A DNA stretch of 19,119 nt from Armatimonadota bacterium (GCA_038207085.1 JBBRAE010000046.1:1-19119); one strand, 5' to 3'; counted from the first letter of the stretch, positions 1,578 through 19,119 are shown. A program made the numbers and translations. The notes: generated by a model from the sequence alone, not told the origin.

Positions 1578-1613
1578 GTATCGGGGAGCTCTCTCCCCGA
1601 TACTTTCTTCTCT
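1578..1613 (+). terminator. Rho-independent terminator. Stem gtatcggggag / ctccccgatac (11 bp, 1578-1588 / 1593-1603), loop ctct (1589-1592), then tttcttctct (1604-1613). Lies between convergent genes.
   Basis: Perfect 11-bp inverted repeat followed by a T-rich tract on the + strand. Sits directly after the DUF4139 stop and abuts the stop (1612-1614) of the minus-strand AAA gene. Confidence 0.7.
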
Positions 1614-3171
1614 ACGGAGCGTCGTTTTCGGAGACAGGGGTCCCCGAAATAACATTGAAGATATCCAGGCCCTCGGGCGGGATGCTGCTCGCCATTCGGC
1701 AGCGTCGGACGGCCCAGCGGCGAAGCGCGTTGATCTTCTCGCGCACCGTCATCGAAAGCGGGACCGATGCCCCAGCGCAGGCGGCGAGGTCGTCCTGGGT
1801 GAGATCACCCCCATTCCCAAACGCGGCGTACAGGCCGTCGATCACCACCTGCTCGATCTCCGCGCCGCTGAAACCGACCGTCATCGCCGCAAGCGCGTCA
1901 AGATCAAACGAGCCCGGCTCGCGCCTGCGCTTCTTCAGGTGAATCTCGAATATCTCGCGCCGATCATCGACGGCGGGCAGGTCTACAAAGAAAATCTCGT
2001 CAAAGCGTCCCTTTCGCACGAACTCCGGTGGGATCTGGGAGATGTCGTTTGCGGTCGCGACCACGAACACGGGTGCGGTCTTCTCCTGAAGCCAGGTGAT
2101 AAACGAGCCAAAGACCCGCGCGGTCGTTCCGGCGTCGCTGTAGGCCGAACTCTGCGCACCGGCGAATCCCTTTTCGACCTCATCGACCCAGAGGACGCAC
2201 GGCGCGACCGACTCGGCGATCGATATCGCCCGGCGCACGTTTTCTTCTGATGAGCCGACGATGCCGCTGAATATCTTGCCCGCATCGAGCTTGAGGAGCG
2301 GGAGCCTCCAGAGCGAAGCAATCGCCTTGCAGCAGAGCGACTTGCCGCAGCCCTGCACCCCCATCAGCATCACGCCTTTGGGCTGCGGCAGGCCAAACTC
2401 CCGCGCGCGGGTGGTGAAGGAATTGGTGCGCATCTCAAGCCAGCTTTTGAGCGAATCCATCCCGCCGACATCTGCGAACGCCTCGGTCGCGGGGTAGTAC
2501 TCGAGCATCCCCGACTTTCGGATGATCTGCTCTTTTTCGCTCACGATCACATCAAGATCAAGCTGCCTGCGTTCTACCAGAGACTTGGCAAAAACGTTCT
2601 CCGCCTCACCAGCTGTCAGCCCTTGCGCGGCTTTCACGATCACCTCGCGCTCGTCGGGCGCGATATCGGTCTTCACCTGGGAGTTGTCCCGAAGCGACTC
2701 GATGATTCCCTCAAGGAGCGCGTCAAGTTCGGCGACATCGGGGAGCGGGTAGTCGACGACGGTGATCTCTTTTTCAAGCTCGGAGGGAATCTTCAGCACG
2801 GGGGATAGAATCACCAGAGTCTTGCCGCTGGTCTTGAGCGAAACCGCGAGGTCCCGCAGCCGCCGGGTCACCATCTTGTCTGAGACGAACGCGTGGAGGT
2901 CTTTCAAGACAAAGATCGCGTCGCCCCGAAAGTCCATGACGTAATCGAGCGCGGCAATCGGCTCTTTGGTGGAGTCGTCACGCGTCCTCGCTTCAGAGGC
3001 AACCCCGGAGGTCGCCGTCCAAGTATACATCCGAGTCCCGCGCCCCTGCGCGATCCCTCGAATAGCCTCCTCCACCCGTTCCTCCTCAAAAGAAACGACG
3101 TAGATGATCGGGTAGCGCGCGCGGATCAGGGTTTCTATGGTCGAATTAGCCTTGCTGCTGCCGTTTGGCAA
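1612..3171 (-). CDS. ycf46: Ycf46-like AAA+ ATPase (classic AAA clade: Walker A GVQGCGKS, Walker [41 protein letters not shown]) with ~250-aa N-terminal domain
   Basis: 519-aa ORF. N-terminus [17 protein letters not shown] and C-terminal AAA module match the Ycf46 architecture known from cyanobacteria and plastids. SD-like GGAGA sits 4 nt before the ATG. Confidence 0.85.
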
Positions 3172-3223
3172 TGGTATGCTCTCCTATGCACCTGACCCTA
3201 AAGGATCAGGCTTGCAAAGCATC

Positions 3224-3278
3224 AAGCAAGCTAAAGCAAGCTTGACGGTATATTCCCCCAGCTTGCTTCAGCTTGCTT
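3224..3278. repeat. Long imperfect hairpin: 18-bp arms agcaagctaaagcaagct (3225-3242) / agcttgcttcagcttgct (3260-3277), 1 mismatch, 17-nt loop (3243-3259)
   Basis: Inverted repeat read directly from sequence. Lies in the 325-nt spacer between the flotillin stop and the ycf46 start. Confidence 0.55.
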
Positions 3279-3292
3279 TCTGGTCTCTTAGG

Positions 3293-3429
3293 GCGTGTCT
3301 GAGAAATCCCGATTGTAGTGGCCGGTCGCCGTGCCAGCCATCAGCGCCATAGGCGCTGCCCTACGGCTTTCCGGCTCCTTCGGAGCCGATGGCCATCAGG
3401 CGGACGGCCACTACACTTCTCAGACACGC
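3293..3429. repeat. ~137-bp nested palindromic element. Outer stem gcgtgtctgagaa (3293-3305) / ttctcagacacgc (3417-3429), 13 bp. Second stem tgtagtggccg (3314-3324) / cggccactaca (3405-3415), 11 bp. Encloses small hairpins agcgcc-ata-ggcgct (3343-3357) and cggctcc-ttcg-gagccg (3372-3388, UUCG tetraloop on the + strand).
   Basis: Seen directly in sequence. Candidate structured RNA, attenuator, or MITE-like element with terminal inverted repeats. Confidence 0.5.
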
Positions 3430-3496
3430 ACTTAGCGTGATGCTTTAGCGTCACGTGCGGCCGGTTGGGAGGTGTCTCCCCACCGATCACTTGCTC

Positions 3497-5398
3497 TTAC
3501 TTCTCAGCCTTATTCACAGCGCCGTCATGCACCGGCTCGGCTTTGGGCTTCTCGGTAGACTGCGCCTGGATCACGGGGAGGTTGGATTTCACCATGCCAG
3601 CGATCGTTTCGGCCATCTCCGGGGAGATGTTGATCTCCTTGCCGGTTACTTTCTTCACGACCTGACCGAGCATCGTGGCGAGGTCGTCGACGGTCTGGCT
3701 CGGGGTGCGGTCGCTGTCGCTTCCGAGGACGCTTTTGCCGACGCCGTCGAGGAACGCGCCGATTCCGAGGCCCTGCGAGAGCTTGGTGAGCATGTCGGCC
3801 ATCGTCTCGGGCGTGCCATAGACGGTGTAGTTGCCCTGCTGGGCGAAGTTGCCGACGGCCCCTGCAAGAGCGATCTGGATCTCTTTCTTCGCCTGAATCT
3901 CAAGCTTGGAAACCTCAAACTCGATCGCCGACTTCTCAAACTGCTGCTTGAACTCGGCGGTAGACTTGTCGACCTCCATCTGCTTGCGGGAGACCTCTAC
4001 GCGCTCAGCCTCAACCAGCACAGGAACGAACTGGATCGCCTTCTCGCCTTCAGCTAGTCTAGTCTTAGCCTGAGAATCGGCCTCCGCCATTGTAAGCGTG
4101 GCTTTTGCACGGTTTTCGGCGGCGCGGAGATCGCCTTCGGCTTCCTTCTGCTTCTGGTAAGCGAACGAGTCGGCTTCCCTCTGTTTCCGAACAAGCGCCT
4201 GCTCGGCCTCGTTCTGAGCGCCTATCAGCTTCTGCCTGGCTTCTCGCTCTGCTCCGGAGACGACTTCGACCGTCTTCACGTCCTGGTTCGCCTGCTCCCT
4301 TGCGGCCTCGGCCTCAAGCCGTGCCTGCTCAGCCGCGGCGCGCTCCGCTTCCTTCTGAGCGATGGCGATCTGCTGGTCGCGAGTCGCAACCTCAACCGCC
4401 CGAACCTTGTCTACCTCAGTAGTCTGAATCGACTGCTCGCGGGCGATATCGGCCTGCTTCACCGACTGATCTGCGACGATCTGCGCCTGCTGGGTCTGCC
4501 GTTCCTGCTCGATGCGGTAGACATCGGCCTCGCGCAGCTTTTCGCTCTGAACGCGCGCCACCTGCATGTGCTGCTCGGCCTCGGCAAACGCCTGGTCCTG
4601 CTGCATTGTAAGCACGCTCTTGCGGGTCGAGACGTTCTTCAGCGTAGTCGCCTGCTCAGCTGTTCTCTCAAGTTCGTTTCGGGCGACCAGAGCAGCAGTC
4701 GTAATCTCGGTGATCTTGCGCTTGCCCTGGGCGTCAAATACGTTGTTGTCGTTCAGGTGCGACGGGTCGGTCTGGTCGAGCCTTGAGATCGTCACGGTTT
4801 CAAGTATAAGACCGTTTGGCTCGATTTCCTTTGCGACTTGCTCCTGGACCGAGCTTGCGAAGCTCTCGCGATCGCTGTGCAGCTCGGCAAGCTCATGCTT
4901 TGCCGCAACCGAACGAAGCGCGGAGGTCAGTTTTTCACCGACCTTGTTGTCGATCGCGTCCTCGGTGCCGGACTGGTCGCCAAACGACCTCGCCGCGTTC
5001 AGCACCTGCTCCGGTGTCGCCCCTACCCTCATATAGAACTCTGAGTGAACATCCGCGCGCAAGTAGTCCCGAGTGATAAGCGCATCGGGCCCTTCACGGA
5101 CACATGTGAGCTTGATCACTCTAAGCGATACCCGAGTCATCCTGTGCAAAACCGGCCAGACGACGATACCGCCGTCGATTATCACCTTGCTGCCGCCCGC
5201 ACCTGTGCGGACGAGCGCCTCTTCAGCCGACGCCTTCTGGTAAAGCGTCGTGATGATCAAGAAGATCATTCCAATCGCGGTCGTGATTGCGCCGATTATC
5301 AAGAATACGAACTGTCCGACTGTGCTCATGTCCGGGAAGAACCACGGACCGATCACCATCGCCAGTCCAAGCAGAGTCATTAATGCAAACCCCATCAT
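3497..5398 (-). CDS. Flotillin/SPFH (band 7) family protein, YqiK/FloT-like: N-terminal membrane anchor, SPFH domain, long Glu/Ala/Gln-rich coiled coil
   Basis: MMGFALMTLLGLAMVIGPWFF TM segment, followed by ...YQKASAEEALVRTGAGGSKVIIDGGIVVWPV... (SPFH start), then an extended EA-rich heptad region. Start placed at the ATGATG (5398/5395) after GAAAGGAG. The ORF-track start GTG 5494 adds 32 hydrophilic residues and is judged unlikely. Confidence 0.85.
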   Translation of the reverse strand: MMGFALMTLLGLAMVIGPWFFPDMSTVGQFVFLIIGAITTAIGMIFLIITTLYQKASAEEALVRTGAGGSKVIIDGGIVVWPVLHRMTRVSLRVIKLTCVREGPDALITRDYLRADVHSEFYMRVGATPEQVLNAARSFGDQSGTEDAIDNKVGEKLTSALRSVAAKHELAELHSDRESFASSVQEQVAKEIEPNGLILETVTISRLDQTDPSHLNDNNVFDAQGKRKITEITTAALVARNELERTAEQATTLKNVSTRKSVLTMQQDQAFAEAEQHMQVARVQSEKLREADVYRIEQERQTQQAQIVADQSVKQADIAREQSIQTTEVDKVRAVEVATRDQQIAIAQKEAERAAAEQARLEAEAAREQANQDVKTVEVVSGAEREARQKLIGAQNEAEQALVRKQREADSFAYQKQKEAEGDLRAAENRAKATLTMAEADSQAKTRLAEGEKAIQFVPVLVEAERVEVSRKQMEVDKSTAEFKQQFEKSAIEFEVSKLEIQAKKEIQIALAGAVGNFAQQGNYTVYGTPETMADMLTKLSQGLGIGAFLDGVGKSVLGSDSDRTPSQTVDDLATMLGQVVKKVTGKEINISPEMAETIAGMVKSNLPVIQAQSTEKPKAEPVHDGAVNKAEK

Positions 5399-5505
5399 TT
5401 GCTCCTTTCGAAAATGGCGGTTTGTGCCATTTTGATTCCCGTTGTGGTAAAGACGGCAGTAGCGCGGGCTTTGCGCTGCGAGAATCTTTATCACAACTCC
5501 TTTCG

Positions 5506-6135
5506 TTATAACAGATCACTTTTCCGGACTACAAAGCGCTTCTCGTCTTCGTCGTAATCGATCACCACCACGTCCGTACCCGGTGCGATCACACTTTCCC
5601 CCTCCTGAACTTTCGCCTGGACCCGATGCACGGTGCCGTACTGGTCCCGGACGTTGATGGTGCCGGACTTCTCGGTGGCTTGATACACGGTATGACCGAG
5701 AAGTCCAACGAGTTGGCGGCGCTCGACGCCGAAAGTCTCATCCCTTGGGGTGATCCGCCCGACGATCTCAGCCACGGCGCGAGTCACAGTGAAACTCGCG
5801 ACAAGCGTAATGAGTATCGATGGCAGGATAAGCGCGCTCGGATGGTCGAGAATCCCCATAACACGGTTGATGAGCATACCAATCGAGCCCCATGTAAGCA
5901 TCAGCAAGCCGACGAGCATGGATATAGAAACATCTCCCGCGCCTACAAAGGCAAGAAACCTGCTCATCCCGTGTCCGTCGCCGAGGTCAGCGTCTGAGTC
6001 GGCCCCGTCACCGAGGTCGTCCCCCGAGCTCTCCTGCATCCCACCGACGACGCTTATCAGAATCCAAAGCACCGATACAGCCAGCGGAAGCGTGTATATC
6101 AGGTTCCACCAGTTGAGAAGGTAGTGGTAAGACAT
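5506..6135 (-). CDS. NfeD/YqiJ-like flotillin-associated membrane protein (paralog 1). Asp/Gly-rich acidic insert, C-terminal OB-fold-like beta domain.
   Basis: Layout is TM helix, then DDLGDGADSDADLGDGHG insert, then 2-3 TM helices, then C-terminal GTVHRVQAKVQEGESVIAPGTDVVVIDYDEDEKRFVVRKSDL typical of short NfeD/YqiJ proteins encoded beside flotillins. SD GAGGGGA before the ATG. 9-nt gap to the upstream paralog. Confidence 0.75.
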   Translation of the reverse strand: MSYHYLLNWWNLIYTLPLAVSVLWILISVVGGMQESSGDDLGDGADSDADLGDGHGMSRFLAFVGAGDVSISMLVGLLMLTWGSIGMLINRVMGILDHPSALILPSILITLVASFTVTRAVAEIVGRITPRDETFGVERRQLVGLLGHTVYQATEKSGTINVRDQYGTVHRVQAKVQEGESVIAPGTDVVVIDYDEDEKRFVVRKSDLL

Positions 6136-6144
6136 GTTATCCCC

Positions 6145-6906
6145 TCAAATATCGCTTTTTCGGACGATAAAGCGCTTGTCTTCGTCGTCGTAGTCGACGA
6201 CAATCACCTCAGTCCCGGCGGCGATGCTCTCATTGGCGTCCTCGCTCTTGGCCTGGACGCGGTGGACAGTGCCGGAATGGTCTTTGATATCGATCGTCCC
6301 GGTGGTCTCGCTTACTGTGAAGACGCTTCGTCCAAGCGAGCCGACGAGTTCCAGTAGTGAAACCCCAAAGGTCTCGTCCCGGGGCATAATCCGTCCGACG
6401 ATCTCCGCAATCGCCCGCGTCACCGTCGCACTTACGACAAACGCGACAGCCATCGAAGGCCAGATGAAAAGCGACGGATAGTGAAGCACCCCGAAGAGCT
6501 TGTTGGCAAGCAGACCAAACGACCCCCAGCACAGCAGGAACATTGCGACCATAAGGCTGAGCGGTGCTTCGTCAAGGCCGAGGACCATCATAAACTTGCT
6601 CGCGCCGCTCGACGACTCACCATCGTGATGTTGCGCGTGCCCATCGTGTGAGGCATGTGAGGCGTGCGCATGCGCGCCGTCGTGTGCTACTGAAGTGTGG
6701 GCATGGGCGTGCAATTGGGCGTGGATGCGATCCCCCGCGTGGTGCAGAGCGTGGCTCACGGAGTGTCCCCCACCATGTCCGTGCGCGTGACCCTGCCCGT
6801 GTCCGTGGCCCCCGGCGAGCGCTGTAGAGACAATCCACAGCACCGAGAGCGCAAGCGGAAGCGCGTAGATCAGGTTCCACCATTGCAGCAAATCAGTTAC
6901 CGACAT
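6145..6906 (-). CDS. NfeD/YqiJ-like flotillin-associated membrane protein (paralog 2) with ~70-aa histidine-rich insert
   Basis: N- and C-termini are paralogous to 5506..6135 (MSVTDLLQWWNLIYALPLALSVLW... / ...GTVHRVQAKSEDANESIAAGTEVIVVDYDDEDKRFIVRKSDI). Insert is GHGHGQGHAHGHGGGHSVSHALHHAGDRIHAQLHAHAHTSVAHDGAHAHASHASHDGHAQHHDGESS. Strong SD GGGGAGGA 8 nt before the ATG. Confidence 0.8.
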   Translation of the reverse strand: MSVTDLLQWWNLIYALPLALSVLWIVSTALAGGHGHGQGHAHGHGGGHSVSHALHHAGDRIHAQLHAHAHTSVAHDGAHAHASHASHDGHAQHHDGESSSGASKFMMVLGLDEAPLSLMVAMFLLCWGSFGLLANKLFGVLHYPSLFIWPSMAVAFVVSATVTRAIAEIVGRIMPRDETFGVSLLELVGSLGRSVFTVSETTGTIDIKDHSGTVHRVQAKSEDANESIAAGTEVIVVDYDDEDKRFIVRKSDI

Positions 6907-6950
6907 TTTATTATCCTCCCCTCAGAGGAATGAACCACGTCCGGGCGCAA

Positions 6951-7766
6951 TTACTGCTCGGTTGTCTCACCGGACGACTTGTCTCCGGCGTTTCCCTGCT
7001 GAACCTGCTGCTCTTGCGCGACTTCTTCGGTCGATTCGGCCACGTGGCCGTTTCCGATCTCCGCGGAGAGCTTTTTGAACCGTTTTTCTGTGTCAGATAG
7101 CCCCATCTCGGCCTTTAGCTCGGACAGCGCTTGGTTTGCCCTGGCCTGACGCGCCGCCTGACGCACCTGATGAAGCTTTTGCTCGTCGCCGAGCTGCGCG
7201 ATGTCACCAATCGCCTGACTCTCGGCGTAGGCATGGTCTGCGCGCTCCTCAAGTCGCTCAAGCGCCTTCATGTCCTCGTCTAGCGACGGCGACATGGCGA
7301 ACTTCTGCACCTGTGCGCGCATTGTCGCGAGCTGATAGCGCATCTGAGCGTTTCGAGCGCGATCGGCAGCCTCTTTCAGCTCGTCCTGAAACATCTCGAT
7401 CTGACCTTTGGCCTCGGCGGCGTGCAGCCTTGCAGCCTCAAGCTGGGTTTTCAGGTCGTCGACACGGGCCTGACAGGACTCCATCTGAAGCAAAAGGTTC
7501 CCCGCAAGCTCATCTTCGTTCTGGGTGACAGCCGCGCGGGCGTCGCCGTCAAGCTGCGCGAGTTTCTTCTCCTCCGCCTCAAGCATCCGCTCGATCCTGT
7601 ACTGGTTCGCGATCACCGGGACCGCTGACGTTTTGAGATCGGCGAGCTTCTGCTTCATGCTTTCGATCACATAAGGACCGATGACGGCGGGATTCTCGTA
7701 CTTGATCAGGCCGAAACTGATAGTGGACAGTATTATTCTTTTGACCCTTTGGAGAATATCTCCCAT
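6951..7766 (-). CDS. pspA: PspA/IM30 (Vipp1/LiaH) family membrane-stress protein, bacterial ESCRT-III superfamily
   Basis: 271 aa. N-terminal amphipathic helix MGDILQRVKRIILSTISFGL, then ...IKYENPAVIGPYVIESMKQKLADLKTSAV... aligning to the PspA EDPxKMLxQ region. Continuous coiled coil and an acidic/Gln-rich tail. SD GGGGGTG 6 nt before the ATG. Confidence 0.85.
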   Translation of the reverse strand: MGDILQRVKRIILSTISFGLIKYENPAVIGPYVIESMKQKLADLKTSAVPVIANQYRIERMLEAEEKKLAQLDGDARAAVTQNEDELAGNLLLQMESCQARVDDLKTQLEAARLHAAEAKGQIEMFQDELKEAADRARNAQMRYQLATMRAQVQKFAMSPSLDEDMKALERLEERADHAYAESQAIGDIAQLGDEQKLHQVRQAARQARANQALSELKAEMGLSDTEKRFKKLSAEIGNGHVAESTEEVAQEQQVQQGNAGDKSSGETTEQ

Positions 7767-7888: not shown

Positions 7889-8680
7889 TTAGTACGTTGG
7901 GTTGGCCATCCGAGCGTTGTACTTGGAGACGTACCAGGGATAGCGGTCGGCGTAAGCGGGGAGTTCGCGTCCTTGATAGCGGGTAGGCGCTGAGGGGGCG
8001 ACGTGCCCATCACAGTAGAGATAGTTGTTCCGCCGGTCGTGCCAGGGAAACTCGGCGTTGGGCATATGTTCGTGCTTCGACCAGCCCCGCACGCATGTCC
8101 AGTCGCCGCATCTGTAGATGTAGTCTCCGGGATAGCTGTAGAAGCTGTCTGGGGTAGCCCCTTCATACAGCAAAATAGTCTTCTTTGGAATCTCGATGAG
8201 CCCCTCCGGGCAGCCAAACAAGTGCCAGGACCCCGAAAGATTTCTCAAGGTAATATTATAGGACTTGTCGTGAAACCCGCCGCCTCTGATATAGGAGTTC
8301 ATGGAATAAGTGCGGGCGGCGTATCTTCCGTCCCACCGATGCAGATCCGGGCAGCACCAGACACTCCCCACCCCACCTTTGCTTCTGACGTATCTCACGA
8401 GCCCCCCGTTGCCGGACTGGTTCCATGCGTTGTAATCGCCGAGCTTACCACCGGGCGAAGGATAAACCCTGTTCCAATCGTCCAAGTACATCTGAAACGC
8501 TATGCCGAGCTGCTTTAGATTCGAAGCACACTTCACAAGATTCGCTTGACGCTTCGAGCTCACGATCACAGGAAAGAGTATCGCGGCAAGAAGCGCAATA
8601 ATACCAATAACCAAAAGCAGCTCGGCAAGCGTAAAGCCTCTGCAACAACATTTCAGACGTACCAAAGCCTCACCCCACAC
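7889..8680 (-). CDS. DUF1559 (H-X9-DG) protein with type IV prepilin-like N-terminal cleavage/methylation domain
   Basis: Prepilin motif RG|FTLAELLLVIGIIALLAAILFPV. C-terminal ...NYLYCDGHV... fits the DUF1559 H-X9-DG family typical of Planctomycetota, Verrucomicrobiota and Armatimonadota. A short leader implies an internal start (GTG 8680 or TTG 8665, after a GGGGTGAGG SD-like stretch) rather than ATG 8737. Confidence 0.7.
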   Translation of the reverse strand: MWGEALVRLKCCCRGFTLAELLLVIGIIALLAAILFPVIVSSKRQANLVKCASNLKQLGIAFQMYLDDWNRVYPSPGGKLGDYNAWNQSGNGGLVRYVRSKGGVGSVWCCPDLHRWDGRYAARTYSMNSYIRGGGFHDKSYNITLRNLSGSWHLFGCPEGLIEIPKKTILLYEGATPDSFYSYPGDYIYRCGDWTCVRGWSKHEHMPNAEFPWHDRRNNYLYCDGHVAPSAPTRYQGRELPAYADRYPWYVSKYNARMANPTY

Positions 8681-8816
8681 ACCGGTGGCGCATAGCGCCA
8701 GCCCTTTCGCAGCCTTTGGCTGCTGTCGGACTGTCATTTTCTGACATCACTGTATTGAGTTTAGCTTCACTATGCCTGCTCGTCAAGCCCTGGCTGTGAA
8801 CAAAGGCAAGTTTCTG

Positions 8817-9375: not shown

Positions 9376-9518
9376 GAGTTACTTACGAATCAACGAGCGA
9401 ATCGGTAAGAGTCTGGCGTGGATTGCGTTGCCTTCCCCGACCGATCGAATCCCGACGCGGTAATTTCGCGTGCGCCCGTTGAGCACCCGGGACTGGGTCC
9501 CAGAAAGAAGGCAAGCAA

Positions 9519-9878
9519 TTGGCTAACAAATCTCTTTATGTAGGCAATATGCCCTACAACACCACCGAAGACGATCTTCGCGGCATCTTCAACGAGTTCG
9601 GACCGATCGCCGACGTGCGAATCATCGGCGACAAGGGTTTCGGGTTCGTTGAGATCCCTGAGGAGAACGTCGCAGCAGCCATCGAATCGACCAACGGTCG
9701 CGACGTAGGCGGCAGACCCCTCACCGTCAACGAAGCTCGCCCGAAGACTGAAGGCGGCGGACGAAGCGGTGGCGGCGGTGGTCGTGGCGGCTACGGTGGC
9801 GGCGGTGGTGGCCGAAGCGGCGGTGGTGGTGGCGGTGGCTACGGTGGTGGTGGCGGTGGCGGCAGAAGCCGCTGGTAG
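9519..9878 (+). CDS. Glycine-rich RNA-binding protein: single RRM (RNP-2 LYVGNM, RNP-1 KGFGFVEI) plus C-terminal GGX/RGG tail
   Basis: TTG start at 9519 with GAAGG SD 7 nt upstream. The downstream ATG 9549 would delete the beta1/RNP-2 strand. The tail is GGGRSGGGGGRGGYGGGGGG... Confidence 0.85.
   Translation: MANKSLYVGNMPYNTTEDDLRGIFNEFGPIADVRIIGDKGFGFVEIPEENVAAAIESTNGRDVGGRPLTVNEARPKTEGGGRSGGGGGRGGYGGGGGGRSGGGGGGGYGGGGGGGRSRW
9753..9866 (+). repeat. GGN/GGY codon tandem repeat (simple sequence) encoding the Gly-rich tail
   Basis: ggcggcggtggt... periodicity read directly. It generates spurious His/Arg-rich antisense ORFs. Confidence 0.6.
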
Positions 9879-9903
9879 ACCCATCAACTAAGTAAAATAT
9901 ATC

Positions 9904-10115: not shown

Positions 10116-10139
10116 TAGGCACTTATCAACATGTGCCTA
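10116..10139 (+). promoter_or_regulatory. Operator-like inverted repeat TAGGCAC-ttatcaacat-GTGCCTA between the -10 and the abiEi start
   Basis: 7-bp perfect arms (10116-10122 / 10133-10139). AbiEi antitoxins are established autorepressors that bind inverted repeats in their own promoter. Confidence 0.4.
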
Positions 10140-10162
10140 CGTTTTGTACACGGGGAAATCCA

Positions 10163-10765
10163 GTGAAATCTGAAAGAACAGAGCAGGCGCTTGAGATAAT
10201 CAAAACAAAGGGACTTGTGCGCACCAGGGACTTGACAGCCTTGGGCATCCGCAGAGATTATCTGGCCACACTTCTTCGAGAAGGTCTAATCGAGCGTGTC
10301 AGTCGAGGCATATACATTCTGCCTGGACTGGATACGACCGAGCATCACAGCCTCGCAGAAGCATCAAAGAGAGTTTCTAAAGGAATAGTGTGCCTTCTCT
10401 CTGCGCTCAGATTCCACGGACTGACAACACAGAATCCTTCCAGAGTCTGGATGGCAATAGATCGAAAGGCATGGCTACCGGAACTTGACACACCACTCGT
10501 CCAGCTCGTGCGATTTTCAGGAAAAGCTCTGGAATACGGAATCGAAGAACACACAATCGAAGGTGTGAACGTTCGTGTCTATAACCCAGCTAAAACCGTC
10601 GCCGACTGCTTCAAATACCGCAACAAGATAGGCCAGGACGTAGCTCTTGAAGCGCTCCGGGACTGCTGGAAACAGCGTAGAGCCACGATGGATCACCTCT
10701 GGGAAGCAGCAGAGGCTTGCCGAGTGGCGAGGATAATGCGTCCGTACTTGGAGTCGCTTGTATGA
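10163..10765 (+). CDS. abiEi: AbiEi-family antitoxin / transcriptional regulator (type IV TA)
   Basis: ...ALEIIKTKGLVRTRDLTALGIRRDYLATLLREGLIERVSRGIYIL... matches the AbiEi winged-helix N-domain. Start chosen at GTG 10163 (GGGGA SD 7 nt upstream). The in-frame ATG 10133 lacks an SD and overlaps the operator. The stop overlaps the abiEii start (ATGA). Confidence 0.8.
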   Translation: MKSERTEQALEIIKTKGLVRTRDLTALGIRRDYLATLLREGLIERVSRGIYILPGLDTTEHHSLAEASKRVSKGIVCLLSALRFHGLTTQNPSRVWMAIDRKAWLPELDTPLVQLVRFSGKALEYGIEEHTIEGVNVRVYNPAKTVADCFKYRNKIGQDVALEALRDCWKQRRATMDHLWEAAEACRVARIMRPYLESLV

Positions 10766-11676
10766 GCGACAAAGAGATAAAGAATCTGCCCGGCTCCGTA
10801 CGCCAGCGCCTTCTGAACATCGCCAAGGATAAGGGTGAGGACTTTCAGCTATTCCTGGATCGTTACGCCGCCGAAAGATTCCTTTACCGCCTGAGCAAGT
10901 CCGAATACAGCAGTGGCTTCGCACTGAAGGGTGCAACACTATTTGCTATTTGGTCGGAAGCCCCCTACAGATCAACAAGAGATATTGATCTCCTCGTGTG
11001 GGGCAACAACTCCGTGAGCCAACTGGAGGAGCTGTTTCGCCATGTCTGCAATATGGACGTGGAAGACGATGGTCTGGTATTCGACAGAAACACTCTCAAA
11101 GCTACGGAGATAAACGAGGACGAGGAATATACGGGAGTGCGGGTCAATCTAATCACCCTTCTCGGTGTCGCAAAGGCAAACGTTCAGATTGATGTCGGTT
11201 TTGGCGACGTAATCACTCCCAAAGCCGTGGAAGTCCAGTGCCCGAGCATTCTCGGATTCCCGTCAGCCGTGATGCTGGCTTATCCTATGGAAACAGTCAT
11301 AGCCGAAAAGGTCCAGGCTATGGTGATGCTTGGCATGGTCAACAGCAGGCTGAAGGACTTTTCGGATATTCATCACCTTGCCAGCAAGTTTGAGTTTCAA
11401 GGCTCGACGCTTTGCGAGGCGCTCAGAACTACTTTTGCACGAAGGCAGACGGAACTGCCAAAGGACATTCCTACAGCGCTCACAGAGCGTTATTATGGAA
11501 GTGGCGAACGAGAAGCGCAGTGGAAAGCATTCAAGAAGAAGACCGCCGTGAAGTCTCCGCTGACTTTTGCGGAAACGTGCCTGTCCCTGCAGCAGTTTCT
11601 GATGCCCCCGTTGACGGCCGTCGGTGCTGACGAGCCTTTCACCAAGACTTGGCGGCCAAGCGGCCCATGTCAGTAA
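10762..11676 (+). CDS. abiEii: AbiEii/AbiGii-family nucleotidyltransferase toxin (type IV TA)
   Basis: MSDKEIKNLPGSVRQRLLNIAKDKGEDFQLFLDRYAAERFLYRLS... and ...YRSTRDIDLL... (NTase motif). ATG 10762-10764 overlaps the abiEi TGA 10763-10765. The ORF-track start 10717 is an upstream extension. Confidence 0.85.
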   Translation: MSDKEIKNLPGSVRQRLLNIAKDKGEDFQLFLDRYAAERFLYRLSKSEYSSGFALKGATLFAIWSEAPYRSTRDIDLLVWGNNSVSQLEELFRHVCNMDVEDDGLVFDRNTLKATEINEDEEYTGVRVNLITLLGVAKANVQIDVGFGDVITPKAVEVQCPSILGFPSAVMLAYPMETVIAEKVQAMVMLGMVNSRLKDFSDIHHLASKFEFQGSTLCEALRTTFARRQTELPKDIPTALTERYYGSGEREAQWKAFKKKTAVKSPLTFAETCLSLQQFLMPPLTAVGADEPFTKTWRPSGPCQ

Positions 11677-11715: not shown

Positions 11716-11792
<77 letters not shown>

Positions 11793-12854: not shown

Positions 12855-13445
12855 CTATTTGGCGGGCTTTTCTGCCGGCTTCTCGGTTGCAACGATGCGG
12901 ACGGTTTTCATTACGTCGCCCATCTCGATCTTCTTGACTACGTCGAGCCCCTCGGTCACTCGACCGAACACGGCGTACTGCATGTCAAGAAACGGAGTGG
13001 CGTCCAGTGTTACATAGAACTGGCTTGTCGCACTGTTGGGATCGTTGGTCCTGGCCATCGCAACCACCCCTGCGGCGTCATGCTTCAGCTTGGGGCTCAC
13101 CTCAAGCGGGATCGTCTTCTCGGAACCCCCTGTGCCGTCGCCTCTCGGGTCCCCACCCTGGATGACAAACCCAGGCACAACCCTGTGAAACTTCAGGCCA
13201 TCGTAAAACTTCTTGTTGGCAAGCTCGATGAAGTTCTTGCTCGTAATAGGGGCGTCCTTTTCGTAAAGGCTGATCTTGAACGTTCCCTTGTTTGTCTCGA
13301 CTACAGCGATATGCTCAACCGCTAGTTTCTCTTGCACTGGTTTCTTCTCCTTAGCCGGTTTGGCTTTCGGCTTAGCCGCTGTGGCTGCGGACGCTGCCAC
13401 GGCAAAAGCCATTGCGAAAACAACACACTTACTGACCAATTTCAT
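12855..13445 (-). CDS. Secreted cyclophilin-type peptidyl-prolyl cis-trans isomerase
   Basis: Signal peptide [23 protein letters not shown]. Cyclophilin signature [37 protein letters not shown] 7 nt before the ATG. Confidence 0.9.
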
Positions 13446-13482: not shown

Positions 13483-14121
13483 CTACCACTTTAGCTTCTT
13501 GATCTGCTCAAGGTCTTTTGCAGTCGGCTTGGATACTGACACAGTCTTCATAACGTCGCCGGGCATAATGGCGTCGACGACTTTCTGACCTGCAAACACC
13601 CGGCCAAATGAGGCGTAACTGCCGGTCCAGTCCGGATACGGATACTTGTTGATGAAGAACTGGCTCGTAGCGCTGTTGGGATCGTTGGTCCTCGCCATTC
13701 CGACCATATATACCTGATCAAACCCAAGGCCTGACTTGATCTCAAGCGGGATCGTCTTCTCCGAACCACCGGTGCCGTCACCCTTGGGGTCGCCGCCCTG
13801 GATCACAATCTCCTCAACTCGGTGGAACTTCAGTCCGTTGTAGAACTTTCGGTTGGCGAGCTGAATGAAGTTCTTGGTGGTCGTAGGCACGTCCTTCTCA
13901 AAGAGGACAAACTTGATATCGCCCCACTTGGTCGAAACTGTCACTATGCTGCCGGGCTCAAAGCTTGCCGACGGAACCGCTTTCGGCTTCTGCGCCTGTT
14001 CCTGCTTCTGGTCCTTGGCGTGCGATTCTTCGCCCTCGTCAGTGCTGGTCTGCCGGTTAAGCGCCATTCCGACGCCTACGAGCGCCGCAAGTACGAAAAA
14101 GAATAGGAGCTTTGTTTTCAT
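13483..14121 (-). CDS. Secreted or membrane-anchored cyclophilin-type PPIase (paralog) with ~50-aa acidic/Gln-rich N-terminal linker
   Basis: [29 protein letters not shown]. Start moved to ATG 14121 (MKTKLLFFFVLAALVGVGMAL). The ORF-track start 14172 runs into the upstream hairpin. Confidence 0.85.
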   Translation of the reverse strand: MKTKLLFFFVLAALVGVGMALNRQTSTDEGEESHAKDQKQEQAQKPKAVPSASFEPGSIVTVSTKWGDIKFVLFEKDVPTTTKNFIQLANRKFYNGLKFHRVEEIVIQGGDPKGDGTGGSEKTIPLEIKSGLGFDQVYMVGMARTNDPNSATSQFFINKYPYPDWTGSYASFGRVFAGQKVVDAIMPGDVMKTVSVSKPTAKDLEQIKKLKW

Positions 14122-14142
14122 ATCTCCCCCGATGTAATAAGA

Positions 14143-14172
14143 ATGTGGGGCAAGCCTGGGCAAGCCCCACAT
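14143..14172 (-). terminator. Hairpin atgtggggc-N12-gccccacat between the thioredoxin-like gene and cyclophilin 2; possible attenuator or partial terminator
   Basis: 9-bp perfect stem. On the minus strand it is followed by TCTTATTACAT, which is only moderately U-rich. Confidence 0.3.
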
Positions 14173-15640: not shown

Positions 15641-16204
15641 CTATTTGCGTCTAAGCTTCAGTCCAACAAGTCCCATAAGACCCGTTGCGAGCGCCAAAAC
15701 GCTAGCAGGCTCAGGAACAGGGGAAGGACCGAACGTCTGGCCACTGTATCCATAGCTGTCCTGCGAAGATGCAAAGGCAGTCTTGGACGTGTCGGGAGCG
15801 AGGGTGCTGCGGAAGGACACGATAATGGGTGTGCCGCCAACCGAGACCGGTCGCAGAGCGCTGCCCTCACCCTGGGCGACCCACCAGATCATGTTCTCTT
15901 CGCCGGCCCACACGCTGTGCGACCAACCAGTGGGATCGGTGATGGCGGTGAAGCCAGTAACTGGCGTTTCATTCGCAAATGTCAGACTGAACCCGACAAT
16001 GCTGTCGCGCTGAGTGTCGTTTGCGAGGGTGTATGAGTAGATGTACCCCCCCCCGTCTGCCACGCAGTCAGGCGTGATACTGAGAGTTCCAGTTGACCCT
16101 GCTGCGTACATCGTCGTTGCTACCCATCCCGCAGGCGCGGCAAAGGCAACACACGAAAGAGCAACTAGAACGACCGCTGCGATACTTACAACAATCCTAT
16201 TCAT
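15641..16204 (-). CDS. PEP-CTERM sorting-domain secreted protein
   Basis: Start ATG 16204 (MNRIVVSIAAVVLVALSCVAFA) with AAGGAGG SD. C-terminus ...PSPVPEPASVLALATGLMGLVGLKLRRK is the PEP motif plus TM plus basic tail. Confidence 0.85.
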   Translation of the reverse strand: MNRIVVSIAAVVLVALSCVAFAAPAGWVATTMYAAGSTGTLSITPDCVADGGGYIYSYTLANDTQRDSIVGFSLTFANETPVTGFTAITDPTGWSHSVWAGEENMIWWVAQGEGSALRPVSVGGTPIIVSFRSTLAPDTSKTAFASSQDSYGYSGQTFGPSPVPEPASVLALATGLMGLVGLKLRRK

Positions 16205-16285
16205 TAATCTATTTCCTCCTTTACTTGTGTTATGGGTTTGGATTAGAACATTGAGCACGTAGACTCAATTCAAAGTTCGTGTAAG

Positions 16286-17101
16286 TTAGGCTGTCCGCCG
16301 CTTTCGCAAAACACACGGCCCCAGCAACCGGACAAGTCCAAGTATTCCAGTCGATGATAGCCAAGTAGGCAATTCAGGCACCACGGTGTCAGCACCGTTG
16401 ATATTGTGTCCATTTGCTACTATCTCAGGCCCATAGGTGTGTCCGGATAGACTCATTGATGCATCGATAACATACTGATTGAAGATATCCGGAGAGAGAT
16501 TACTGATGTAGCTAAACTCAACAGCAGTCCCTGGACGCAGCCCCGGATTGCCAGTGGATTGGGCAACACCATCAGCGTTCAACACTGTGTTTGTCCACCA
16601 TATCTCATCCCTTACTGGATGTCCAAGAGTAGTAAGTTTTTTGGAGTCCCACTCTTCATGACGCCATGTGTATACAGCGACTGGGTTGGTACTCGAACTA
16701 TTGAATGGCTGTTTCAGATCTATGGGTTCAAACCTCGTGACCTGATCACTAATCGTCCAGCCACTAAAATTCAGCAGACCGTTAAACGTCATGCTGAACG
16801 AGTGAAGCGGCCGGATGTCCTGCCCGGCGTAAAAGTCTGTTGGCATATACAGACAGTATCGGTAATCATACCCTGAGCCCACTTGAGTATATTTAGCACC
16901 CAGAGACAACCATCTGCTCGTATCAATAGTATTTTCGTTTATTCTGGAGTATAGATTTGCGCCCAACCAAGTATTCGGAGCCCACGTGTCACAGTAGCCA
17001 TTCCTTGCGACTGCTAGTGTGAGCAACGTTACCGCCAACGCGACCAGCGCTGCGCGCAGTGTTAAGCATCGGTATAAACGGTTGTCTCTTTCACCTAACA
17101 T
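16286..17101 (-). CDS. Secreted hypothetical protein with degenerate PEP-CTERM-like C-terminal anchor (VPELPTW...TM...RKRR)
   Basis: N-terminal signal-like LRAALVALAVTLLTLAVA. C-terminus VVPELPTWLSSTGILGLVRLLGPCVLRKRRTA. SD GGGGGA before the ATG. Confidence 0.7.
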   Translation of the reverse strand: MLGERDNRLYRCLTLRAALVALAVTLLTLAVARNGYCDTWAPNTWLGANLYSRINENTIDTSRWLSLGAKYTQVGSGYDYRYCLYMPTDFYAGQDIRPLHSFSMTFNGLLNFSGWTISDQVTRFEPIDLKQPFNSSSTNPVAVYTWRHEEWDSKKLTTLGHPVRDEIWWTNTVLNADGVAQSTGNPGLRPGTAVEFSYISNLSPDIFNQYVIDASMSLSGHTYGPEIVANGHNINGADTVVPELPTWLSSTGILGLVRLLGPCVLRKRRTA

Positions 17102-17181: not shown

Positions 17182-17739
17182 TTACTTTCTTCGCCGAATC
17201 ATCGGCAGGCCAATACCAGCGATGCCGGCGAAAAGCGCGGCAAGAGTTCCAGGCTCAGGAGCCGCCGGGCCGTAGGTGTTTCCACTGAAACCATAGTAGG
17301 TGCCCTGCGAAGACACATTCACATTCTGCACCGGTGACGGGCCGTAGACCGAGGTAAACCCGAAGGTCTTTGTCTGGCCGACGGCGATTCGGTCAACTGA
17401 CGTAGCGCTAGGGCCCAAGCTCCATCCGATCTTGTTGTCTCCGTTGGTGGTTCGCACAACAAACGTCCAGTTGGACGGAGCGACAATGTAGGTCAACTCC
17501 GACACCGGAACATCTGCCGAGAACACCAGAGTAAAGCCGTACACGGACCCACGCGACCCGAGGTTGGTCAGATCGTAGGAGTAGGCGTAACCACCGGTGA
17601 TCTGGGTGCAGTGAGGCGTTACCTGAAGTGAATCAGCGGTTCCGATAGCAGTCAATGTTGATGTATCCCAAACAGGAACATCGGCGTGCGCTGCGCACGC
17701 AACCACGAGCAGAGCGAGTAAGACAACCATTCTTTTCAA
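17182..17739 (-). CDS. PEP-CTERM sorting-domain secreted protein (paralog of 15641..16204)
   Basis: TTG start 17739 with GGAGG SD 8 nt upstream (MKRMVVLLALLVVACAAHA). C-terminus ...GPAAPEPGTLAALFAGIAGIGLPMIRRRK. Shares TP(D/H)C...GGY(I/A)YSY(T/D)L and G(Y/F)SG(Q/N)T(F/Y)GP blocks with the paralog. Confidence 0.85.
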   Translation of the reverse strand: MKRMVVLLALLVVACAAHADVPVWDTSTLTAIGTADSLQVTPHCTQITGGYAYSYDLTNLGSRGSVYGFTLVFSADVPVSELTYIVAPSNWTFVVRTTNGDNKIGWSLGPSATSVDRIAVGQTKTFGFTSVYGPSPVQNVNVSSQGTYYGFSGNTYGPAAPEPGTLAALFAGIAGIGLPMIRRRK

Positions 17740-18101: not shown

Positions 18102-18818
18102 CTATCCCACACCCCATCGGGACCGGTTGATAGCCTCAGCGAGATCATTGTATCTCGGCATCAACTCGCACCGGGATGACACTTTCAGGTGCCGGAAGAT
18201 ATTTCCCACGTGGGTCTTCACAGTGCTTACAGACACACAAAGCTGGTCGCCAATCTCTTTGTTTGTCAGCCCCTTCACCAGTAGCTCGAGCACCTGAGAC
18301 TCCCGCCTGGACAGGTCCTTACGCCCCTCGACCGCCTGGCTGTCATCTACCATGCCCGGCATTCCATCATCAACCAGAAGCTTGAGAGCAGAACAGCATA
18401 CGCGCTGGTCGTAGACAACCTCGCCATCTATTACGGCCCGGATAGTTCGCAGGAGGTGAGCAAGGGACCTGGTCTTGACGATATAGCCATCAGCACCAGA
18501 CTTGATGGCGTAGATAAGCATGAGCTCGTCTTCTGATGGGGAGATTACCACGACTTTCGTCTCAGGAGAGGACTTCTTGAGGTCGCTTACCAACTGTATA
18601 CCAGAATCGTCGTCTGGCGCTATCGCCACAACGACCATACTTATGTCGTTTTCCGAAACCATCTGCCTCGCGGTCTGAACGCAGCCAACGTCAGCGACTA
18701 TATCGATATCAGGCTGTTCAGAGAGCACGCGGGCAGCGCTTTCTCTGAACATAGTCTCACCGTCGACTAACATGACCTTGGTAGTCGAGATCAGCTCAAT
18801 CGCAGCATCAATTACCAT
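18102..18818 (-). CDS. LuxR/NarL-family response regulator (REC plus HTH_LuxR) with atypical receiver domain
   Basis: [51 protein letters not shown]-like N-domain KVMLVDGET...VVVISPSED...GADGYIVK. Start set at ATG 18818 ([20 protein letters not shown]) with GGGGGA SD. The ORF-track start 18911 adds 31 residues. Confidence 0.8.
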
Positions 18819-19119
18819 TTTATTGGGGTCCCCCTTCGCGCACTGTTCTGCTACGATCCACCACTGCATTGTCGACAGTAGACACGAGCACTCCAGCTTG
18901 AGACACACCATTTCGCATGGTGCACATCTGGAGTATACATAGTGTGTGCTTGTTTGTCAATTGCAAGTATTGCCAGGTCAGGAGCATCGTTTTTAGCTGA
19001 GTTTTGGGGAGAATTCGTCGGTCGATGTGTGCCGAGCAGAGATGGAAGGGTGTTTGGCGGGGTGCATTGAGCGTGTTTGGGTATAGAATGGGGATTTGGT
19101 GTGTGCGATCGCAGTCCTT

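Follow-up and report, generated by a model that had tools for sequence, protein, structure and literature searches.

A PspA, NfeD-like and flotillin gene cluster followed by a Ycf46-type AAA+ ATPase gene in one lineage of Armatimonadota

The gene cluster

Here we describe a group of five consecutive, co-directional open reading frames (ORFs), which occupy positions 1612-7766 on the minus strand of a 19,119-nucleotide stretch of DNA from an Armatimonadota bacterium (GCA_038207085.1, JBBRAE010000046.1:1-19119); the whole of this stretch is what we call the window. Close homologues that carry names also place it in Armatimonadota, and it appears to be a complete NCBI contig. Read from its head, the cluster encodes a PspA/IM30 family protein, two NfeD-like membrane proteins, a flotillin and, behind a structured spacer, an AAA+ ATPase of the Ycf46 type (Table 1). 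An initial annotation, made from the sequence alone, had taken the five genes to be a membrane-remodelling module with an ATPase of its own. All five minus-strand ORFs that it listed are present, and a check with Pfam hidden Markov models upholds the family that it assigned to each of them, the second NfeD-like protein matching only below the cutoff, at 17.9 bits. The NCBIfam matches of PspA, the flotillin and the ATPase are all sub-threshold and hold at the level of the family.

From pspA towards the AAA+ gene, the intergenic gaps measure 44, 9, 107 and 325 nt, and a Shine-Dalgarno-like motif stands ahead of every start in the cluster. The first three of these gaps, together with the motifs, agree with the earlier impression that the genes from pspA to flotillin look operonic. 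The likely start of the flotillin gene is the ATG at 5398/5395 behind AAAGGAG rather than the upstream GTG at 5494 (the NCBI protein has 632 aa), and the AAA+ gene starts with TTG and has the ribosome-binding site AGGAGAG. In a scan for terminator-like structures, the hairpin beyond the end of the AAA+ gene showed an 11-bp stem, followed on the plus strand by TTTCTTCTCT.

Table 1. Features of the window, with positions counted from its first letter
Feature	Position	Strand	Size or remark	Basis
PspA/IM30 family protein	6951-7766	-	271 aa, heads the cluster	PF04012
NfeD-like 1, YqiJ/YuaF-type membrane protein	6145-6906	-	253 aa	YqiJ_N
NfeD-like 2, YqiJ/YuaF-type membrane protein	5506-6135	-	209 aa, tandem paralogue	YqiJ_N, below cutoff
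SPFH/Band_7 flotillin (YqiK-like)	3497-5398	-	632-633 aa	Band_7
Structured spacer, flotillin to AAA+ gene	3172-3496	-	325 nt	Folding energy
Ycf46-type AAA+ ATPase	1612-3171	-	519 aa	PF00004 + AAA_lid_3
GC-rich palindromic hairpin, probable terminator	1578-1603	.	Between the convergent AAA+ and DUF4139 genes	
Small RRM-type RNA-binding protein	9519-9878	+	Gly/Arg-rich tail	
AbiEi antitoxin / AbiEii nucleotidyltransferase toxin	10133-10765, 10717-11676	+	Type IV toxin-antitoxin / abortive infection	
tRNA	11719-11792	-	Sole Rfam match in the whole window	Rfam, gathering thresholds
Tandem cyclophilin-type peptidyl-prolyl isomerase paralogues	12855-13445, 13483-14172	-	Signal-like N-termini	
Secreted paralogues and, beside them, a LuxR-type response regulator	15641-16258, 16286-17101, 17182-17739 (-), 18102-18911 (-)			

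The flotillin, its NfeD-like partners and PspA

The flotillin matches the Pfam family Band_7 at 72.7 bits, against a cutoff of 23.6, and its sequence reads as two hydrophobic N-terminal segments serving as an anchor, followed by a long C-terminal region rich in Ala, Glu and Gln. Against the FloT equivalog model it reaches only 53 of the 700 bits required, so that the window protein is better called flotillin-like than FloT. Its relatives comprise about 30 proteins at 71-81% identity and, after these, hundreds at 40-51%. When metagenome contigs were scanned with the flotillin as the centre, 80 loci were obtained at 39-76% identity; an NfeD/YqiJ-like ORF lies directly upstream of the flotillin gene in 74 of these, and also in all of the close relatives that were inspected. 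Flotillin and NfeD had been named beforehand as a conserved pair, and such a count confirms it. A neighbour-joining (NJ) tree of the flotillins is star-like within the close clade, and speaks neither for nor against monophyly of those loci in which an ATPase gene follows.

The first NfeD-like protein scores 26.2 bits against YqiJ_N, over the 23-bit cutoff that its paralogue misses, and the lone NfeD-like gene upstream of the flotillin in relatives has its best match here. The two paralogues are 52% identical, DNA repeats D4 and D6 link them, and relatives of the same clade have one NfeD-like copy against the two of the window. Within a family of 25 members, 17 match YqiJ_N at E<=0.01 and only two match YqiJ_OB; there is no match to PF01957, the OB-fold domain of NfeD. 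The profile of this family gives a weak hit (E = 0.027) to the OB domain of YuaF (2k14), at the correct C-terminal position. A low-confidence AlphaFold2 model of NfeD-like 2, computed from a two-sequence alignment and with a predicted local distance difference test (pLDDT) score of about 50, has three long helices and then five C-terminal strands. With moderate confidence, we regard both proteins as partners of the YqiJ/YuaF type. NfeD-like 1 also has a His-rich loop, at residues ~33-100 between the first two transmembrane helices, which gives it ~45 residues more than paralogue 2; the consensus of the YqiJ-like family at large has a His-rich segment as well, and this segment gives a compositional match to the His-loop of the zinc transporter ZnT7. 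This loop may bind metal.

PspA matches PF04012 (PspA_IM30) over residues 4-221 at 88.8 bits, against a cutoff of 33.9, and the proteobacterial equivalog TIGR02977 at 74.9 bits, under its cutoff of 243. Among the scanned ORFs of the window, no match was found to the PspB, PspC or sigma-54-activator families. Orthologues of this PspA, 73-76% identical to it, head the same cluster in the related loci L003, L168 and L169. Counting the window, a PspA gene lies upstream of NfeD-flotillin in nine of 13 close-clade loci, an arrangement restricted to the nearest flotillin relatives, the clade at 71-81% identity. The PspA proteins found beside this clade are of two types, one 73-76% and the other 26-37% identical to the window PspA; the pairing of PspA with flotillin is thus a recurrent one, and this favours a functional link between the two.

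Some further details of these surroundings may be recorded. Directly upstream of pspA in the window, at 7889-8737, a prepilin-type N-methylation (DUF1559-like) protein is encoded. The loci L165 and L085 hold a doubled unit, consisting of PspA, NfeD, a short Band_7 protein (~211 aa), NfeD and flotillin, and in L165 a gene with a spermine-synthase domain lies convergent downstream, recalling the link of PspA to polyamines described by Ravi et al.

The ATPase and its family

The active part of the ATPase is a classic AAA domain with its lid at residues 267-457 (PF00004 at 92.8 bits plus AAA_lid_3 in Pfam), in which a Walker A motif GVQGCGKS, a Walker B motif VDEVE and the arginine region can be read. 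Its N-terminus (~residues 1-200) is a degenerate AAA-like domain, predicted to be alpha/beta, that has no Walker A or P-loop. The closest solved AAA domains are those of Cdc48/p97 D2, NVL and Afg2, so the label of a classic-clade ATPase given at the outset was right; Vps4 is not among the top 60 PDB matches. Pfam detects no MIT domain in the protein, the CdvC model NF041006 scores 75.8 bits against a cutoff of 650, and the other sub-threshold matches in NCBIfam are to CDC48, PAN, FtsH and IteA. Typical threading unfoldases carry an aromatic-hydrophobic-Gly sequence at pore-loop 1. Here pore-loop 1 (residues 300-310) reads G-I-V-G, Ile replacing the aromatic residue in the family, and G303, V305 and G306 are invariant in an alignment of 14 sequences.

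The family of this ATPase is very large, more than 8000 database proteins matching at E<1e-20. Among the species representatives of GTDB, end-to-end identities of 48-64% are found in Armatimonadota, Chloroflexota, Myxococcota, Omnitrophota, Planctomycetota, Sumerlaeota and Cyanobacteria, and in 12 cyanobacterial genomes a single gene is 48-50% identical to the ATPase over residues 4-500. The name Ycf46 fits by virtue of this orthology to cyanobacterial proteins and of the generic label used by JGI, not through a curated Ycf46 model. Judged by its sequences, the family is a widespread, highly conserved and vertically inherited single-copy gene across phyla.

We surveyed the gene neighbourhoods of the best 80 of at least 595 GTDB matches, one locus per species, at 48-64% identity to the ATPase. 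PspA, NfeD or flotillin genes were found within 10 kb on either side in none of the 80 loci, by a phmmer search at E<=1e-3 that detects PspAs down to 26% identity. What accompanies the ATPase in 29 of them is a DUF1257 gene, on the same strand and within ~2.5 kb; these include all cyanobacteria, many Myxococcota, Omnitrophota and Planctomycetota, and KSB1. The cyanobacterial orthologues stand between a small upstream gene and DUF1257. All-against-all clustering of the neighbours yielded overlapping-frame artefacts and lineage-specific genes, and it was by inspection of the loci and iterative search that DUF1257 emerged. DUF1257 was not found in the window or in any locus where the ATPase follows flotillin.

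The DUF1257 protein that goes with these Ycf46-type ATPases is small, and is sometimes accompanied by DUF2997 (29 loci within L015-L083, L172 and L175). Full-length homologues of the ATPase borne on plasmids adjoin genes for WYL, 4Fe-4S-domain, DUF2997 and 'baseplate V' proteins, and near the three such homologues from Clostridium, Bacillus and Treponema there is no PspA gene. Such company suggests that the Ycf46-type ATPase and DUF1257/DUF2997 form a conserved, uncharacterised module, perhaps with ties to mobile elements or conflict systems.

The flotillin-ATPase junction

Downstream of the flotillin gene, the ATPase gene occurs in one of the 80 flotillin-centred metagenome loci, and a targeted look-up found the same order in L003/L084, L168, L169 and L170. 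The five-gene arrangement is thus conserved beyond the window, as had been asked of it, in four other loci with unrelated outer flanks, the relatives having one NfeD-like gene. Flotillin followed by the ATPase was not seen in the four close flotillin loci L164-L167, nor in the three close-clade flotillin loci L086-L088 from metagenomes (L085 ends at the flotillin gene, its downstream side not being covered), and flotillin does not precede the ATPase in the close AAA loci L001, L171 and L172. In GCA_054604175.1, a related metagenome-assembled genome, a PspA orthologue (79% identical) is solitary, NfeD-flotillin shares its contig at a distance of ~35 kb, and a different contig carries the AAA gene, beside an NHL-repeat gene. 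The ATPases linked to flotillin make up one Armatimonadota clade in 191 of 200 NJ bootstraps, and the copies known to be unlinked are excluded from it in 195 of 200; since the linked ATPases form a single clade, the adjacency of flotillin and AAA genes arose once. In the unlinked Armatimonadota loci L001, L172, L171, L008 and L006, the gene downstream of the ATPase encodes an NHL-repeat beta-propeller of ~320 aa, which in L001 (11539-12501) overlaps the ATPase gene by 4 nt. The flotillin-linked clade of ATPases lacks this NHL gene.

The spacer before the ATPase gene had been described as structured, and it is strongly so: its minimum free energy is -179.6 kcal/mol, against -117 +/- 5.6 for shuffled sequences (z = -11.2). 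It folds into a compound hairpin of 147 nt (-90 kcal/mol), a hairpin with a stem of ~21 bp (-38 kcal/mol) and smaller ones, and no T-run comes after any of these. A search of the window spacer for a sigma-70-like promoter found none, its small ORFs were none of them convincing, and Rfam at E<=1 returned nothing significant, only a chance match to SmY. The spacer was also considered as a repeated mobile element; this was rejected, as neither the window nor the 173 loci compared contain a second copy.

In the relatives, the spacers between flotillin and AAA genes are 104 nt (L003/L084), 186 nt (L168), 81 nt (L169) and 96 nt (L170), and the last three of these four each contain a GC-rich hairpin (-19 to -22 kcal/mol) with a T-rich tail behind it. 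A simple terminator scanner flagged the hairpin of L168 only, and the calls for L169 and L170 rest on RNAfold and on reading of the sequence; the scanner probably missed them because extension of the stem absorbed the T-run, or because the stem is bulged. These hairpins suggest attenuated read-through into the AAA gene in L168, L169 and L170, a mode of expression that would yield plenty of the structural proteins and less of the ATPase. The window spacer is probably an attenuator or an mRNA-stability element, and, after the fashion of repetitive extragenic palindromic (REP)-like elements, it may do the same job as the hairpins of the relatives.

Comparison with known systems

Much of this cluster has precedents. 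E. coli yqiJK and B. subtilis yuaFG likewise have a gene of the YqiJ/YuaF type, with several predicted transmembrane segments, directly upstream of a long SPFH flotillin; the window differs from them in its tandem duplication of the NfeD-like gene, in the PspA gene at the head of the operon and in a flotillin that falls far below the FloT model. Neighbourhoods of PspA are known to hold band 7/FloT and NfeD, for example in 58% of the PspA loci of Acidobacteriota (Popp et al. 2022, PMC9239133), and for the pspA-ydjGHI operon of B. subtilis it has been proposed that PspA is brought to the membrane by the SPFH protein YdjI (Scholz et al. 2021, as cited in PMC7619361). Both resemble the window in encoding PspA together with an SPFH protein and membrane partners; unlike pspA-ydjGHI, however, the window has no partners of the YdjG/YdjH type (zinc-ribbon, TPM), its partner is of the YqiJ/NfeD type and its lineage is Armatimonadota.

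An ATPase, too, has been found in such company. Ravi et al. (2024, PMC11237479) report operons of CesT/Tir-PspA, Band-7/flotillin, YqiJ/YuaF and AAA+, which likewise bring PspA, flotillin, a YqiJ/YuaF-type protein and an AAA+ ATPase into one cluster, although a CesT/Tir protein was not detected in the window. They also list independent dyads of PspA with an 'inactive-AAA+AAA' protein, in the Firmicutes member Clostridium sp. BNL1100 (the Clo1100_0028 neighbourhood) and in Handelsmanbacteria (PMC11237479 Table S3, Text S2.2). These ATPases, which stand beside PspA or Snf7, have by their description the same domain architecture as the window ATPase, but the two neighbourhood strings list no flotillin or NfeD. 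The opinion that PspA, flotillin and an AAA+ ATPase together are not a textbook arrangement was accordingly overstated, similar operons having been described in PMC9239133 and PMC11237479; what is new is the combination of PspA, YqiJ-type NfeD and flotillin, already known together, with a Ycf46-type ATPase, in one Armatimonadota subclade.

In archaea and eukaryotes, ESCRT-III and Vps4 (CdvB-CdvC) similarly place a gene of the ESCRT-III superfamily near a classic-clade AAA+ ATPase. The window ATPase departs from Vps4/CdvC in the want of an MIT domain, in having two AAA-like domains and not one, and in being closer to Cdc48 D2, NVL and Afg2, and its adjacency, unlike that of CdvB and CdvC, is confined to one subclade. 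The Ycf46 of cyanobacteria and plastids is the nearer relation by the full-length identity of single cyanobacterial orthologues given above. In Synechococcus, ycf46 belongs to a three-gene operon (Synpcc7942_0416-0418; bioRxiv 10.1101/2025.07.21.665879); the window has neither DUF1257 nor the small upstream gene of the cyanobacterial locus, and a flotillin operon precedes the ATPase instead. Among 41 papers that mention Ycf46, we found none that links it to PspA or Vipp1.

Interpretation

On balance, we judge it probable that the cluster is a PspA-NfeD-flotillin membrane-stress module of a known kind, next to which lies a lineage-specific Ycf46-type gene, probably transcribed by read-through. 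If yqiJK, yuaFG and the pspA-ydjGHI operon of B. subtilis are a guide, the flotillin and its YqiJ/YuaF-type partner would form membrane-anchored SPFH assemblies, and by the same kind of analogy these assemblies would help to position the ESCRT-III-fold PspA at the stressed membrane. The Ycf46-type gene would have settled at the 3' side of the flotillin operon a single time, in one subclade of Armatimonadota, and have kept that place since, with its transcription probably depending on attenuated read-through past the structured spacer. The initial annotation went further, in that it called the ATPase dedicated to the module, gave it a possible Vps4-like role in disassembly and looked to a neighbourhood survey for PspA and Band_7 beside Ycf46-type genes. 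That survey instead confines the linkage to one subclade, with none of the 80 GTDB loci showing it; a member of so widespread a family, unlinked in every one of these loci of other lineages and kept apart by close relatives, whose modules lie at three places, can hardly be called dedicated; and the want of an MIT domain and the low CdvC score tell against the Vps4-like role, which is left to rest only on adjacency within the subclade. The ATPase is best treated as a lineage-specific neighbour and not as an integral Vps4-like component.

Several observations weigh against this preferred reading. The junction is kept in all five subclade loci of known context (the window, L003/L084, L168, L169 and L170), even though these differ in all five downstream and all three known upstream flanks, and their G+C spans 47-63%; its retention exceeds what neutral synteny would lead one to expect. 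In L168, L169 and L170, moreover, the end of the hairpin or T-rich tail is 20-36 nt from the AAA start, too short a distance to hold a separate promoter, so that the ATPase is probably co-transcribed with the genes before it. And if the 'inactive-AAA+AAA' proteins of Ravi et al. share the family of the window ATPase, then the association recurs across phyla. Co-transcription alone would nevertheless explain why the junction is retained, and its retention is thus no proof of a shared function.

The ATPase might instead be a true fifth component, recruited to remodel or take apart PspA polymers or flotillin cages, or both, with the energy of ATP, and so a functional analogue of Vps4 that is made at a lower level owing to the attenuating spacer. 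We consider this possible but doubtful. The retained junction amid scrambled flanks and the likely co-transcription across the relatives' short spacers (81-186 nt) would be expected of such a component, as would the co-direction of its gene with the operon; its classic-clade AAA domain resembles unfoldases such as Cdc48 D2, PspA or Snf7 beside 'inactive-AAA+AAA' proteins offers precedents, and the NHL beta-propeller gene, the usual downstream partner in Armatimonadota, is absent from the linked clade. Yet the adjacency has a single evolutionary origin, no orthologue among the 80 in other lineages is linked, the family-wide partner is DUF1257, and sister genomes hold the three modules apart; there is also no MIT-like recognition domain, pore-loop 1 is without its aromatic residue, and an identity of ~50% across phyla implies a substrate that is probably conserved rather than specific to the clade. 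That one Armatimonadota lineage captured a Ycf46-type ATPase as the missing remodeller of PspA polymers or SPFH cages seems to us unlikely; if it were true, the captured enzyme would also give a hint of what kind of substrate the Ycf46 proteins of cyanobacteria and plastids act on.

It is quite improbable that the adjacency is pure chance and without effect on transcription, with a spacer that combines a complete terminator and, behind it, an independent promoter, and an ATPase gene that is a separate unit. A spacer of 325 nt packed with very stable hairpins could accommodate both elements, and the hairpins with T-rich tails in the spacers of L168, L169 and L170 look the part, but the window spacer has neither a recognisable sigma-70-like promoter nor a T-run behind its hairpins, the relatives leave no promoter room after theirs, and the junction has been retained throughout the subclade. 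Hardly credible, finally, is the suggestion that the cluster, or at least the ATPase, forms part of an island that is mobile or serves anti-phage defence, with the AAA+ protein as an IetA/IteA-like ATPase and the AbiE pair (10133-11676) marking a hotspot. The IetA models of PADLOC do match the AAA domain at 71 bits, NCBIfam IteA does so at 71.9 bits, and there are the plasmid-borne full-length homologues with their WYL, 4Fe-4S, DUF2997 and 'baseplate V' neighbours; but such scores reflect generic similarity of the AAA core (the IteA cutoff is 510 bits), no IetS-like partner protease is present, and PspA, NfeD and flotillin have no PADLOC match. The ATPase is, besides, a single-copy gene inherited vertically across phyla, and the AbiE pair lies 2.4 kb away on the opposite strand, past two unrelated genes.

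Whichever of these holds, the question matters for the PspA and Vipp1 polymers of bacteria, which have no known Vps4-like disassembly ATPase; indeed such an ATPase appears to be absent from bacterial PspA systems (review PMC7619361). It bears on the biochemical role of Ycf46 proteins as well: the stable attachment of a Ycf46-type gene to a PspA-flotillin operon, with which it is probably co-transcribed, offers a concrete lead on ATP-dependent remodelling. Should the ATPase do no remodelling, the locus would be one more PspA-SPFH-NfeD module in the catalogue, and a caution against deducing function from adjacency on a single contig.

Other features of the window

Elsewhere in the window, the secreted paralogues near its end include one that matches PEP-CTERM in Pfam, a second with a similar C-terminal tail and no Pfam match, and a third, related ORF that also has none. 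The GGY/GGC tandem repeats at 9753-9875 are explained by the Gly/Arg-rich tail of the small RRM-type protein, and the longer minus-strand ORF at 9390-9887 is probably spurious. The DNA of the two cyclophilin-type paralogues still contains stretches that are 74-86% identical. The AbiEi/AbiEii pair stands directly beside the tRNA gene, which is the typical layout of an integration hotspot.

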